A DNA stretch of 57,465 nt from an uncultured Gammaproteobacteria bacterium. Lineage in GTDB: Bacteria; Pseudomonadota; Gammaproteobacteria; GCA-001735895. The first letter of the stretch is position 1. Every line of letters starts with the position of its first letter. The stretch spans positions 1-57,465 of the forward strand of contig CAXMRQ010000082.1 of assembly GCA_964196115.1 (NCBI GenBank), written 5' to 3'. The position numbers and the translations under genes are program-made. The notes beneath the pieces are model-generated. The model worked only from the letters and a program-made list of their open reading frames with translations, was not told where the DNA came from and did no database searches. Shown piece by piece: positions 7,271 to 41,549 of this stretch.

Positions 7271-7504
7271 TAGGAGGCTGACCGAGAATAGGGGTCGTAG
7301 TGATATGTACAGGATGTACGGTAATAGAACACCAACAGTAGGTGCCTCCAGGCAATGCAGGAGCAATTGTCGAGGGAAAGCTGGATTTAGGCAGATTTTT
7401 TCATTTTTGGGGCAAATAGTTACTCATATTCAGCGATAAAATGGGGAAATCTGCCTAGATCCAGCTTTTCCGCAGTAGGCCTTCTATTCTCGGTCAGCCT
7501 CCTA
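7271..7504. mobile_element. MITE family 1, subfamily A, copy carrying the 70-bp GGA cassette
   Basis: 24-bp perfect inverted repeat GCCTAGGAGGCTGACCGAGAATAG (7268-7291 / 7484-7507), TA/CTAG at both ends, long internal palindrome, homologous copies at 33773 and 40717. Confidence 0.88.
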
Positions 7505-23959: not shown

Positions 23960-24217
23960 TTGAACCTGGGAAACGCAGTTGGATCACGAAAGTCCACACA
24001 CCAAAAGTAGGCGCTTTTAAGCGAGCTCTTGACGCACCGGAGTGCCGCATCACTAGAAAACCAAATAACTTCTCATCACCAATAAGGTGGCTACGAATTA
24101 TTTGACAGGCACTATGCGCCAATATGACGTGCATGGATGCACTAATGCAGTGTTTGCAGGATGCAAAGGAGCTGCCTTACACGTCTTTTTCGCGCCCAAC
24201 TGCGTTTCCCAGTTTAA
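23960..24217. mobile_element. MITE family 2 with GGA hairpins and one 23-bp micro-unit
   Basis: 17-bp perfect inverted repeat CTGGGAAACGCAGTTGG (23966-23982 / 24196-24212), extendable imperfectly to TTGAA/TTAA ends; non-coding; between convergent genes. Confidence 0.8.
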
Positions 24218-32797: not shown

Positions 32798-33836
32798 TTC
32801 TTGTCACACACTCGGTCTGGAATATAGCTGAACTTATCGCAGTCAAAAGACTCCCGGTATCGGCACGGGAACTTCCGGCGAGATCCAGGGCGGTGCCATG
32901 ATCTACTGATGTGCGGATGATTGGTAACCCGAGCGTGGTATTGATCGCACGGTGAAATCCTGCGTGTTTCAATACTGGTAGTCCCTGGTCGTGATACATT
33001 GCCAGAACCGCATCGGCATCGATCAAATTTTGTGGCGTGAATACAGTATCAGCCGGAAATGGGCCGCTGATATTCAGACCTTTTTGTTGCATAATTCCTA
33101 TAGCCGGGGATATTTGCTCGATCTCTTCGCGCCCCAGGTATCCATTCTCCCCTGCATGGGGGTTGAGACCGCAGACTTTTATATGTGGTCGCCGCAATCC
33201 GAATTTTAATTGCAGGTCATGGTTTAGAATATCGAGGATCTGAATAATCAATTCAGTGGTGATTGCTTCGGCTACCTGCCGTAGGGGTAAATGCGTGGTC
33301 GCGAGCGCGACTCTGAGTTTGTCTGCAGCCAATAACATGACCGGTTTGACGCCACCACAGATATCAGCTAAAAATTCGGTGTGACCACTAAATGCTATAC
33401 CTGCCTGGTTAATGATGTCCTTTTGCACCGGAGCGGTAACCATTGCATCGAATTCCTTCTCCAGACAACCGTTACAAGCGCGTTTTAATGTTTCAAGCAC
33501 ATAGCTGGCGTTCTCCTGATCCAGGATTCCGGCTTTACAGGGCGTTGCTAGCGGTATATGTAATATTTCAAGCTGAGCTTTTCCAGAGGACCTGGCCCCG
33601 GGCTGGTATTCGACAAAATTAAGGTCGGGATTTAATGCCTTGTTGCGTGACTCTATTAATTCACGATCCCCGATTATTATCAGTCTCGCGTTATAGCTAC
33701 AGGCATCAATAGCGGCAATAATATCTGGCCCGATGCCTGCCGGTTCGCCTGACGTTATTGCGATGCAGGGGCAAGGAGGCTGACCGAGAATAGGGGTCGT
33801 AGCGAGGGAAAGCTGGTTTGAGGTAGGTTTTTTCAT
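32781..33836 (-). CDS. pdxA: 4-hydroxythreonine-4-phosphate dehydrogenase; first 21 codons derive from a MITE
   Basis: GEPAGIGP, GHTEFLA, GLNPHAGE, MYHDQGL, RTSVDHGTA. Confidence 0.96.
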   Translation of the reverse strand: MKKPTSNQLSLATTPILGQPPCPCIAITSGEPAGIGPDIIAAIDACSYNARLIIIGDRELIESRNKALNPDLNFVEYQPGARSSGKAQLEILHIPLATPCKAGILDQENASYVLETLKRACNGCLEKEFDAMVTAPVQKDIINQAGIAFSGHTEFLADICGGVKPVMLLAADKLRVALATTHLPLRQVAEAITTELIIQILDILNHDLQLKFGLRRPHIKVCGLNPHAGENGYLGREEIEQISPAIGIMQQKGLNISGPFPADTVFTPQNLIDADAVLAMYHDQGLPVLKHAGFHRAINTTLGLPIIRTSVDHGTALDLAGSSRADTGSLLTAISSAIFQTECVTRNATSS

Positions 33837-33936
33837 TTTTGAGGCAAAAAGTTACTCATATTTAACGATAAAATGGAGAAATCTGCCCAAATCCAGCTTT
33901 TCCGCAGTAGACCTTCTATTCTTGGTCAGCCTCCTA
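33773..33936. mobile_element. MITE family 1, subfamily A, empty copy (164 bp, no GGA cassette)
   Basis: Ends AGGAGGCTGACCGAGAATAG / CTATTCTTGGTCAGCCTCCTA; colinear with 7271-7504 except for a clean 70-bp gap. Confidence 0.9.
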
Positions 33937-39878: not shown

Positions 39879-40715
39879 ATGAAAGAGATCGAAAGTGTCA
39901 AGGAAAGCGGCGGATACCTGAATCGTTATATTCATGACTCGAAGACCTGCCGTTGTGAAATGACATTTTCGGTTTATTTGCCGCCGCAGGCTGAAACCGA
40001 AAAAGTACCCGCTTTATACTGGCTTTCAGGGCTTACCTGTACCGATGACAATGCACGTACCAAGGCCGGCATGCAGCGCTTCGCTGCGAAGCATGGCATA
40101 GCCGTCGTATTTCCTGACACCAGCCCGCGCGGTGAACAGGTTGATGATAAACCTGATCGTTACGATCTGGGACAGGGCGCCGGGTTTTACGTTAACGCGA
40201 CGCAGCAACCCTGGTCTGAGCACTATCAAATGTACGATTATGTCGTTACTGAGTTGCCCGAGGTGATCGAACAAAATCTTCCTTTAATGCCGGGTGTTAA
40301 GTCCATCAGCGGCCATTCTATGGGTGGGCACGGGGCTTTAATTTGCGCGCTAAGAAATCCACGGATGTTCCGCTCGGTTTCTGCTTTTGCGCCGATTACT
40401 AATCCAGTCGCCTGCGGTTGGGGACAGGGCTGCTTCGATCTTTATCTGGGGAATAACAGGTCCGACTGGCAAGCTTACGATGCTACCTGCCTGATTGAGA
40501 ACGGGGCCAGGGTAGCGGATATCCTGATCGATCAGGGTGATGGTGATGAATTCTTACATGAAGGCCAGTTACAGCCGGATAATCTGCAGGCGGCCTGCGA
40601 AGCGCAGGGCCAACCCTGTACCATCCGCATGCAGCCAGGCTACGATCATAGCTATCATTTTATCGCCAGTTTCATCGACGCGCATTTTGACTACCACGCC
40701 AAATACCTGAAATAG
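39879..40715 (+). CDS. fghA: S-formylglutathione hydrolase
   Basis: WLSGLTC, PDTSPRG, GHSMGGHGA, GYDHSY. Confidence 0.96.
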   Translation: MKEIESVKESGGYLNRYIHDSKTCRCEMTFSVYLPPQAETEKVPALYWLSGLTCTDDNARTKAGMQRFAAKHGIAVVFPDTSPRGEQVDDKPDRYDLGQGAGFYVNATQQPWSEHYQMYDYVVTELPEVIEQNLPLMPGVKSISGHSMGGHGALICALRNPRMFRSVSAFAPITNPVACGWGQGCFDLYLGNNRSDWQAYDATCLIENGARVADILIDQGDGDEFLHEGQLQPDNLQAACEAQGQPCTIRMQPGYDHSYHFIASFIDAHFDYHAKYLK

Positions 40716-40716
40716 C

Positions 40717-40977
40717 CAGGAGTCTGTCGGACTTAGGTGGTCGTCACGATATGTACAGGATGTACGGTAGTAGAACACCAACAGTAGGCGCTTTTAGGCG
40801 CCAACAGTAGGTGCCCTTAGGCAATGCAGGAGCAATTGTCGAGGGAAAGACCGGTTTGAGTCAGATTTTGAGTTCTTTTAAGGAAAATAGTAGTTCTATT
40901 TGACGAAAAAGAACTCAAAATATGGCCAAATCCGGCTTTTCCGCAGCAGACCACAGCCTAAGTCCGACAGGCTCCTA
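40717..40977. mobile_element. MITE family 1, subfamily B, copy carrying the 93-bp GGA cassette
   Basis: 23-bp inverted repeat with 2 mismatches (GCCAGGAGTCTGTCGGACTTAGG / CCTAAGTCCGACAGGCTCCTAGC); same internal architecture as subfamily A. Confidence 0.88.
40776..40821 (+). repeat. Two tandem 23-bp micro-units
   Basis: CACCAACAGTAGGCGCTTTTAGG then CGCCAACAGTAGGTGCCCTTAGG; single copies at 7330-7352 and 23999-24021. Confidence 0.9.
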
Positions 40978-40982
40978 GCCTC

Positions 40983-41549
40983 CTATGCCGCTGTTTTGTG
41001 GCGATTTTCGGCACCATTGACAAAATCAGCCGACTGTCGCATTGCCGGGAAATCGAGCGGCCTGGCTGCTGTCTTCCACCACAAAGGATTGGTCTGCTGG
41101 GTAATTAACTGATCGTGATCGTGAAAAGCGTAGCGCTGTTTTTGCTGTTTTAAAAAGCCCCAGGAGCTGGCTTTCGGGCCATGTATGAAAAGCGTCCAGA
41201 CCTCTATGTTGTCGATCAAATTGATGCGGTGGAATATGTTGCCGTTGATCCAGTTGAAACGCCCGCTACGCACCATTCGTGTTTGTAGCGTATTGTTATG
41301 AGTCGAATCTGCCATTCGTATTTCTTCATATTTTCCACTTAAGATTAAAGAAAAAGCCGACTTCCAGGGATGGTTGTGTAGACCACGCCCCGGATCGCTG
41401 GCAACAAAACGATGTAGATAAACCTGATAGTTAAAAGGTAATTTTAACAGGTGATATCGCTCTAGATAGGGTCGTTGATCCACCCCGTTAATAATGCGAC
41501 AGCGGCAGTATGAACTAATTTTATACAATATTTGACCGATTATAGACAT
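40983..41549 (-). CDS. Uncharacterised cupin-fold (DSBH) putative metalloprotein, 188 aa
   Basis: PYLERY, YLHRFVASDPGRGLHNHPW, ILSGKYEE, FHRI, WTLFIHG, WGF; RBS GAGGA before ATG 41549 (the longer ORF-track start overlaps the WYL gene). Confidence 0.75.
   Translation of the reverse strand: MSIIGQILYKISSYCRCRIINGVDQRPYLERYHLLKLPFNYQVYLHRFVASDPGRGLHNHPWKSAFSLILSGKYEEIRMADSTHNNTLQTRMVRSGRFNWINGNIFHRINLIDNIEVWTLFIHGPKASSWGFLKQQKQRYAFHDHDQLITQQTNPLWWKTAARPLDFPAMRQSADFVNGAENRHKTAA

Follow-up and report, generated by a model that had tools for sequence, protein, structure and literature searches.

The DNA considered here is a contig of 57,465 nt from an uncultured gammaproteobacterium (CAXMRQ010000082.1, assembly GCA_964196115.1), referred to below as the window. 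The question raised by its positions 40,717 to 40,977 is whether a short sequence that stands there twice in tandem, and that recurs in otherwise unrelated repeats of the window, is a fixed part of those repeats or an insert in its own right, and if the latter, how it moves. A first-pass annotation had placed four copies of this unit in the window and proposed that they form a third tier of nesting, an insert added repeatedly to repeat elements. The pattern CCAAMAGTAGGYGC matched the window at 7332, 24001, 40778, and 40801, confirming all four copies; four matches at up to two mismatches compare with 1.03 expected, and none of 100 shuffled sequences contained four or more. The proposed third tier also held up well beyond the window, as we found the unit in 84 unrelated contexts, including protein-coding genes, with unit-free forms abundant. 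The unit is a discrete insertion without target duplication, present or absent at otherwise identical sites, and we consider it highly probable that it is a real, precisely inserted element that is mobilized in trans. Among known mobile DNA elements it appears to rank with the smallest.

Unit-free copies of the same sites define the insertion

The genome assembly to which the window belongs comprises 3.58 Mb in 229 contigs and is a draft in which repeats are collapsed. We scanned it for the 22- and 23-nt forms of the unit, allowing mismatches only (at most five) and using the reversed genome as a control, and obtained 214 units compared to 4 in the control. The core sequence alone gave 180 exact matches. 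The units are organized into 173 arrays, of which 138 are single, 30 double, 4 triple, and 1 quadruple, in keeping with the variable copy number that had been noted from the window.

Paralogues in which the two flanks are joined exactly, with no unit between them, exist in the genome for 45 of the 83 flank contexts; these 45 account for 128 of 172 arrays and include 19 of the 23 contexts that recur. These unit-free places number 169, and a target duplication was present at none of them. Unit-free counterparts, whose absence the first-pass annotation had named as a reason to doubt an insert, are thus common among paralogues. An alternative unit-free form with one A fewer was found in 0 of the 83 contexts, barring two that have an extra T in their own flank and one in which the unit is 2 nt longer. 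Because the unit-free paralogues set the borders at CCAA on the left and at GGCG or GGCA on the right, the register is shifted 2 nt to the right of the one first proposed. The insert itself was correctly recognized, but it measures 22 to 23 nt rather than ~21 bp, and the CR dinucleotides that had been taken as its borders belong to the sequence on its left, being the retained last bases of either the flank or the unit before, with no border being duplicated.

Empty and filled versions of a site can be very similar. We found 81 filled sites that have an empty paralogue at no more than 12 mismatches per 80 nt of flank, including five with no mismatch and four with one; since these filled and empty flanks are nearly identical, some gains or losses are recent. 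A single site within one of the carrier modules, AGAACA^ATGCAGG (the caret marks the insertion point), occurs empty, with M, with V, with M+V, and with K+V, these letters denoting subtypes of the unit (Table 1). The window alone contains three states, namely a bare 162-nt miniature inverted-repeat transposable element (MITE), a MITE with the module and one unit, and a sister MITE with the module and two units. Contigs from three of four metagenome runs carried the unit-free joint 40775>40822 with sides of 20-23 nt; paralogues are the source of these joints, which do not demonstrate alleles of this locus. Between the genomes compared, in which relatives were represented by one genome per species, we found no unit-level alleles, all of them being at most 79% identical at this locus.

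A conserved head is followed by a hairpin under selection

The first 11 nt of each unit, CCAAMAGTAGG, form a head, and the remainder is a hairpin with a 4-bp stem and a loop of 3-4 nt. The head is a near-palindrome that includes GTAG, and when read from the sequence as CCAAC-A-GTAGG it has dyad symmetry at 8 of its 11 positions. The outer pair of the stem is C-G in 169 copies, T-A in 34, and G-C in 5, and the inner pair is T.G in 143 of 246 copies, C-G in 40, and T-A in 26. Among the 246 tails that follow CCANNNGTAGG, pairing is complete in 193. Counted as distinct haplotypes, 21 of 72 are fully paired; when the 3' arm was shuffled 500 times, the number averaged 6.8 and never exceeded 15. These changes are compensatory, and the hairpin is under selection. 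Predicted folding of a lone unit is weak, whereas a tandem pair gives a longer hairpin that draws on the dyad of the head (-10.4 kcal/mol, z = -3.6), and a fifth stem pair is formed only with a second unit downstream. No Rfam family reached its gathering score in the window. In the genome scan almost all heads lay within complete units, on which grounds we rejected the idea that half-units serve as termini of a larger element or persist as footprints of excision.

The first-pass annotation had also argued that recent slippage explains the tandem pair poorly, each of its units being closer to a distant copy than to its neighbor. The comparison on which this rested was accurate in that 23999-24021 and 40776-40798 are identical at 21 of 23 positions and the tandem units differ at four. 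Unit 1 is indeed closer to the distant copy (two differences to the one at 24000, four to its neighbor), but unit 2 ties at four and four in the original register and is closer by three to four only in the corrected one. The hairpin type TGCCCTTAGGCA has 17 copies in the genome, and copies identical to unit 2 of the window thus exist elsewhere. A simple tandem repeat generated by slippage only was rejected given the 138 single units, the dozens of contexts, and the divergence of M-V neighbors whose identical copies lie far off. The argument against slippage stands for the M-V pair of the window, but it does not extend to every array, as some homogeneous ones show local duplication. In contigs C2 and C206 (CCAACGG pairs) and C73 (a 4 x M22 array), neighboring units have private changes in common, and because neighbors share such a change we conclude that some arrays grew by local duplication.

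Insertion site and polarity of arrays

The left flank of the unit ends in RGYA and the right flank begins with A. Position -1 is A in 164 of 173 arrays and is preceded by C or T in 170 of 173, and position +1 is A in 161 of 172. Across the 84 unrelated contexts, which were drawn from this and other genomes, the target consensus is G-Y-A^A-n-G, amounting to ~4 bits, with no conservation farther out. The 3' end of the unit (GGCG, GGCA, or AGCG) resembles the RGYA end of the target. Terminal inverted repeats are absent, the ends CCAA.. and ..GGCG not being inverted copies of one another. We considered whether the target might be the loop of a host hairpin and rejected this as a rule, since flanking stems of at least 5 bp occur in 6 of 84 contexts compared to 3.3-4.3 expected.

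All 35 multi-unit arrays are head-to-tail. As regards the polarity of unit addition, a point raised when the window was first annotated, V is the 3'-most unit in 27 of these 35 arrays and is internal in none, and K precedes S in three. The sequence after V is in 31 of 31 cases the AYGCAGGAGC arm of the second-tier module, K occurs only in the repeat termed 'family 2', and V, K, and S are each restricted to one host family. M is the type that is found everywhere and V a host-bound, diverged one, and we infer that a new unit is added at the left-flank motif, which is retained, on the 5' side of the unit already there.

Coding genes and introns carry the unit

In the genome of the window, a tyrosine recombinase on contig C1 is split by the unit into pieces that match positions 3-60 and 63-167 of the Phage_integrase profile. 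In other genomes, the unit splits DDE_Tnp_IS66 (profile positions 158-255 and 257-284), DDE_3 (26-86 and 89-142), and the zinc domain Zn_Tnp_IS91 (3-54 and 57-87), and an IS66 zinc finger in another genome is split as well. For the DDE_3 host, the downstream piece passes the Pfam cut-off with 49.1 bits, whereas the upstream piece, at 22.9 bits against a cut-off of 28.6, fails it. Because the flanking gene pieces continue the same profile without loss of residues, the unit is an addition and not the remnant of a deletion, and because an insert of 22 nt shifts the frame, the host genes are broken as they stand. Three group II introns also carry the unit, twice 6 nt upstream of the D1-D4-3 model and once within it.

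Of ten distinct sites in transcribed hosts, nine have the unit in the sense orientation (p = 0.02, with related copies included in the counts). Six of these sense sites, comprising the tyrosine recombinase, two IS66 sites, the IS91 zinc domain, and two group II introns, score above the library cut-off; besides DDE_3, the three others were assigned from weak or no matches or from a reading by eye.

Within positions 8800-11882 of C1, the unit-broken tyrosine recombinase overlaps an intact IS91-family transposase by a few bases, both lying downstream of a 210-nt MITE. At two loci from unrelated samples, L157 (G006:C146) and L226, the same IS91-like gene contains two units, one in the sense orientation in the zinc domain and one antisense ~270-580 nt downstream. 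The frame at L226 is otherwise open across 1.6 kb.

Distribution in other genomes

An exact scan of one genome per species returned at least 116 loci. Among the matches listed were cultured Methylobacter and Methylotuvimicrobium strains, such as Methylobacter tundripaludum SV96 and Methylotuvimicrobium sp. KM1, and metagenome-assembled genomes (MAGs) labeled as many gammaproteobacterial families; a few MAGs among these listed matches were labeled Chloroflexia, Ardenticatenaceae, Nitrospinae, Desulfuromonadales, or Halobacteria, labels that may be wrong. The context of the unit in the 'Halobacteria'-labeled genome is the same module as in Methylobacter. The exact 22-mer is present in 24 of 60 congeners at 1-23 copies each, compared to 112 in the genome of the window, and in 12 of 400 other genomes of the class at 1-41 copies; at the level of genera, it was found in 12 of 308, including that of the window. 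Read backwards as a control, it gave 0 matches in the class sample and one (G004) in the genus sample. Metagenome contigs added at least 122 further loci. Viral contigs contained 0 exact matches, and plasmids gave no match at E <= 0.01, a limit that a 22-nt match could hardly reach. The distribution is patchy, with bursts.

A candidate single-strand mechanism

The explanation that we favor when the evidence is taken as a whole, and which seems to us about as probable as its negation, is that the unit is a non-autonomous micro-element: an HUH enzyme acting in trans would move it in the form of single-stranded DNA, and passive amplification would follow. The more specific identification of the mover as a Y1 protein of the HUH type, associated with repetitive extragenic palindromes (REPs) or resembling that of IS200, is a tentative one. 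Such an enzyme would bind GTAG and the hairpin on the top strand and would make two cuts, each after a short RGYR motif: ..GYA^CC, where the flank meets the unit, and ..GGCG^A, where the hairpin ends on its 3' side. The 22-nt piece would then be joined behind an RGYA motif exposed on the lagging-strand template. Since the motif in the left flank survives insertion, the same site could be hit again, and repeated hits would build head-to-tail arrays in which the oldest unit is at the 3' end. Most of the 214 copies would arise later and passively, through amplification of the carrier MITEs and of modules of ~47 nt.

The orientation of the unit relative to replication is consistent with this mechanism. 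In Methylotuvimicrobium sp. KM1, where we assigned the replication arms from GC skew (positive to ~2.4 Mb, negative after 2.6 Mb), the top strand, which carries GTAG, lies on the lagging-strand template for 28 of 36 units, and in a second complete genome, from another family, it does so for 10 of 13, four ambiguous units near the origin having been left out. The two genomes together give 38 of 49 (p = 1.4e-4; p = 0.0075 against a 60% null). In contrast, an arm of the host module that was used as a control in KM1 (57 occurrences) showed no bias, with 28 of 56 on that template (Fisher p = 0.009 compared to the units). According to PMC3333891, binding and cutting by E. coli TnpA-REP require GTAG together with the REP hairpin and take place on single-stranded DNA only; the same paper describes IS200/IS605 elements as having no inverted ends and no direct repeats, an active top strand, a guide sequence 5' of the hairpin foot, and a preference for the lagging-strand template. 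The genome of the window contains three intact Y1 genes that match the NCBIfam model 'REP-associated tyrosine transposase' (RAYT), two above its cut-off and one below.

A number of observations nevertheless weigh against an HUH mechanism. The strand-bias counts are not fully independent, as related copies are included in them. No unit lies within ~1.5 kb of any of the six Y1_Tnp loci of the genome, although the draft assembly could hide a copy; the three intact Y1 genes have no GTAG hairpin of the unit's kind beside them and are adjoined by housekeeping genes; and all six Y1 matches in KM1 are at least 10 kb from any unit. RAYT-like genes occur in 58 of 60 congeners irrespective of the presence of units. 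The 4-bp stem is shorter than the 5-13 bp of the GTAG families listed in PMC3733652, and E. coli TnpA-REP cuts at C^T (PMC3333891), whereas the borders of the unit are A^C and G^A. The strong A at +1 would not be expected if the enzyme read the 5' flank only, and the arrays are head-to-tail rather than inverted. One hairpin would have to serve both ends, as is not known of any HUH transposase, and REP-RAYT pairs are lineage-specific as a rule, yet the 22-mer of the unit is identical across families. Finally, the same homologous positions are filled in hosts that are 58-72% identical, which a 4-bit target is insufficient to explain. There are three such positions (the IS91 zinc-domain site, an antisense site, and a site in a C-x2-C open reading frame), each filled in five loci, and the exact-match searching by which they were found favors intact units and so introduces an ascertainment bias there.

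We also looked for a link between the unit and RAYTs, both as adjacency and, for one RAYT-like gene, as co-occurrence with unit counts in the 60 congeners, and found none; close orthologues of this gene do not track the counts. Directly after one RAYT-like gene in the genome of the window (contig C162, locus L002, 686-732) are two direct copies of a different GTAG hairpin, AAAGGG-TAGCGTC-CCCTTT, whose 13-nt core occurs 10 times in the genome. This hairpin may be the REP that belongs to the adjoining gene.

Other ways to account for the unit

A different kind of DNA enzyme could insert the unit by recognizing the head CCAAC-A-GTAGG as a dimer binding site, as a tyrosine or serine recombinase, an IS110-type enzyme, or a nuclease-ligase might. 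The dyad symmetry of the head would suit such an enzyme, as would the fact that the insertion point has information to its left (A at -1) as well as to its right (A at +1), the lack of an HUH gene linked to the unit, and the presence in the genome of a tyrosine recombinase and an IS91 gene that are themselves hosts of the unit. However, a double-stranded circle of 22 bp is impossible, known recombinases need longer paired sites, no target is duplicated, and the replication-strand bias (38 of 49), along with the sense bias in transcribed hosts, points to a single-strand step. A candidate enzyme was likewise not found, and we think this account unlikely. The sense bias (9 of 10 sites) is also what might be seen if the unit spread at the level of RNA, entering transcripts by ligation or by a step resembling reverse splicing and becoming fixed by reverse transcription, for which the reverse transcriptases of group II introns would be natural candidates. 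Three hosts are group II introns, and T.G, the commonest closing pair (143 of 246), pairs in RNA. Against this, most hosts are DNA elements (MITEs, IS66, IS91, DDE_3), in which a change made to RNA is not inherited, 22 nt is too short for a ribozyme, one site that recurs in five loci is antisense, and a replication-strand bias is not predicted. Spread through RNA thus appears quite improbable to us.

The recurrence of the unit at homologous positions could mean that it benefits the host, either as a regulatory hairpin or by means of an in-frame UUU-AGG-C at which a +1 ribosome shift would let the 22 nt add seven residues. The three sites filled in several hosts at 58-72% identity still have units identical at 21-22 of 22 positions, and in three of five recognizable coding insertions the codon is split after its first base, which puts TTT AGG C in frame; the genome's own recombinase and two recurring sites read likewise by eye, and L120 and L226 are otherwise open reading frames. 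Phase 0 (L086) and phase 2 (L013 and L180, with TAG in frame) were also found, however, the antisense site puts TAA in frame, further stops are present in L025, L082, and L051, and the excess of phase 1 is partly due to shared ancestry of the sites, so that a host benefit seems very improbable. It is harder still to credit that the unit does not move at all, being instead an old segment of composite repeats that varies by slippage, unequal exchange, and precise deletion promoted by its hairpin. The private changes shared by neighbors in C2, C206, and C73, the confinement of V, K, and S to one host family each, the fixed offsets of most copies within larger repeats in genomes G005 and G305, and the deletion derivatives that are joined at units would all be accommodated by such a history. 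It does not accommodate 84 unrelated flank contexts with identical borders in all, several of which are conserved protein domains or introns whose profiles run on without the unit, nor the same 22-mer in 12 of 308 genera sampled. Immobility is therefore largely refuted as a full account, and it remains a source of part of the variation in copy number.

Relation to known elements

The unit is not a member of any one described family. Nearest to it are the GTAG-tagged REPs and bacterial interspersed mosaic elements (BIMEs), the logic of IS200/IS605, and, as they are reported, the small dispersed repeats (SDRs) of cyanobacteria. With GTAG-tagged REPs and BIMEs, as described in PMC3733652 and PMC3333891, the unit shares an unpaired GTAG at the 5' foot of a stem (..CA-GTAG-G-[CGCT/TTA/GGCG]), compensatory and G.T changes in that stem, high copy number, and a variable number of tandem copies. 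Like BIMEs it forms mosaics with other short motifs, and like the REPs it has some copies within genes and occurs in a genome with RAYT-type genes. It differs from GTAG-tagged REPs in its stem of 4 bp (5-13 bp in PMC3733652) and in a conserved 7-nt extension 5' of GTAG. Whereas those REPs mostly form inverted dimers, head-to-head or tail-to-tail (REPINs), the unit is single in 138 of 173 arrays and head-to-tail in the rest; unlike in REP/RAYT systems, no RAYT gene is flanked by it and its sequence is identical across families; and unlike REPs it is precisely inserted in other repeats, transposase genes, and introns.

IS200/IS605 elements, as PMC3333891 describes them, are like the unit in that they have no inverted ends, duplicate no target, and are strand-specific, with a bias toward the lagging-strand template. 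In both, the short motif 3' of which insertion takes place persists at the left border, and the foot of a hairpin is preceded on its 5' side by a short guide. Those elements, in contrast, have two subterminal hairpins and measure hundreds of bases even when miniature, while the unit has one 4-bp hairpin and 22 nt. No parent insertion sequence or cognate Y1 transposase gene of the unit was found.

The SDRs of heterocystous cyanobacteria, reportedly characterized by Elhai et al. in 2008 as 'very small mobile repeated elements', are reported to measure ~20-27 nt, to occur in dispersed and tandem copies of variable number, and to be supposedly mobile, with no known enzyme; they are found in another phylum and reportedly have other sequences. 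Exact presence or absence at otherwise matching sites is also reported for SDRs of 21-27 nt, and in this behavior and in size the unit would agree with them. In Neisseria, the 20-bp dRS3 repeats have inverted ends, are part of intergenic mosaic elements, and are the target of other elements. Like dRS3, the unit stands between other repeat modules in arrays and is used as a site of recombination, but dRS3 is not known to be inserted in coding genes or shared between families. As with MITEs, which are its own hosts here, the unit is non-autonomous, multi-copy, and nested; unlike them, it has no terminal inverted repeats or target site duplication and is ~5-10 times shorter. A 16-mer of the unit, in either orientation, had no match in the full text of the open-access papers and preprints searched, and a phrase search of the literature for very small mobile elements returned nothing relevant.

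Mobile DNA is usually held to need at least two recognizable ends and ~100 bases, a minimum that would be lowered by an element with 22 bases and one 4-bp hairpin. In its most far-reaching form, the HUH hypothesis would make the unit a 'nano-transposon', in which a widespread HUH enzyme needs no more than one hairpin and a GTAG guide to excise the unit and reinsert it, and a parasite of parasites that crosses family borders; we regard this as rather doubtful. If it were true, the unit would land mainly in selfish elements (IS91, IS66, DDE_3, group II introns, and MITEs) whose single-stranded or transcribed intermediates expose its target, and it might perhaps cross phylum borders too. It would turn transposase genes off, and perhaps on again by precise excision, and it would reshuffle nested repeats through exchange between units. 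An element of this size that leaves no footprint on insertion, recurs in unrelated hosts, and has the same sequence across bacterial families would offer a very small and defined substrate with which to approach the cellular role of REP-associated and other HUH enzymes. The unit also has practical effects: short-read assemblies break at it, the transposase and recombinase genes that it frameshifts are for this reason annotated as pseudogenes, and it drives deletions between nested repeats.

Host repeats and passive multiplication

Much of the copy number is passive, by hitchhiking on MITEs and modules, and independent events are for this reason better counted by contexts than by copies. In other genomes, copies are found at fixed offsets within larger repeats (G005 and G305). 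In G305, which is from another family, units occur as fixed pairs that are either direct and 67 nt apart (six pairs listed) or inverted and 131 nt apart (four pairs listed), and from this fixed spacing we conclude that the units ride on two larger repeat types there. The genome of the window also contains derivatives of 111 and 149 nt in which a MITE end or the first module is joined to the last module via the unit array, and there is no empty form of the junction; the units are portable homology by which the DNA between two of them is deleted. The inventory of multi-copy proteins in the assembly of the window showed no transposase family with three or more copies, probably as a result of collapsed repeats. 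The units of the window and the repeats that host them are listed in Table 1.

Table 1. Positions of the units and of their host repeats in the window (hairpins are given as 5' arm/loop/3' arm)
Positions	Strand	Feature	Basis
40778..40800	+	Unit 1 of the tandem pair, main type M23: CCAACAGTAG followed by hairpin CGCT/TTTA/GGCG	Borders from unit-free paralogues
40801..40823	+	Unit 2 of the tandem pair, variant V: hairpin TGCC/CTTA/GGCA, compensatory to M	Subtype comparison
7332..7354	+	Lone V-type unit; module and site within it as for the tandem pair, MITE different	Pattern match
24001..24023	+	Lone K-type unit (hairpin CGCT/TTTA/AGCG); host is the 'family 2' repeat, which is unrelated	18 unit-free copies of the context
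40719..40975	+	First-tier MITE of 257 nt (base form 162 nt); terminal inverted repeats GGAGTCTGTCGGACTTAGG at 40719-40737 and 40957-40975	68 paired elements
40750..40777	+	Second-tier module, left half: hairpin GTACAGGATGTAC and GGTAGTAGAACA; last bases AACA are the insertion target	
40824..40842	+	Second-tier module, right half: ATGCAGGAGCAATTGTCGA	
7304..7373	+	Second-tier module and unit in the MITE at 7273: module halves 7304-7331 and 7355-7373, with the unit between them at 7332-7354	
7273-7500		MITE with module and one unit	Window comparison
33774..33935	+	MITE of the 7273 family in its 162-nt base form, lacking both module and unit (tiers 2 and 3 empty)	

The MITEs fall into two related 162-nt families, with terminal inverted repeats GGAGTCTGTCGGACTTAGG and GGAGGCTGACCGAGAATAGG, respectively. 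The GGAGTCTGTCGGACTTAGG family accounts for 99 and 93 end matches, and its paired elements range from 51 to ~430 nt. MITE ends abut CTAG or CCTAGG, the latter occurring 112 times in the genome compared to ~874 expected from length alone. The second-tier modules, of ~47-49 nt, consist of a small hairpin with GGTAG(T)AGANNA^AYGCAGGAGCARTTGNCGA and are themselves cleanly inserted in MITEs. They match no Rfam family, and they are present in many other genera, where they are the commonest host of the unit.

When the region 40200-41500 was compared to the nearest congener (G077:C8; 79% identity, measured in the esterase-like gene upstream), the flanking matches were ~80 nt apart there and 324 nt apart here, and the whole MITE at 40719 is therefore an insertion of this lineage. 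In metagenome run X6, one contig leaves out exactly 162 nt by connecting 33771 with 33934, and its shorter side measures 48 nt; another population seems to be without the 33774 MITE at the same locus.

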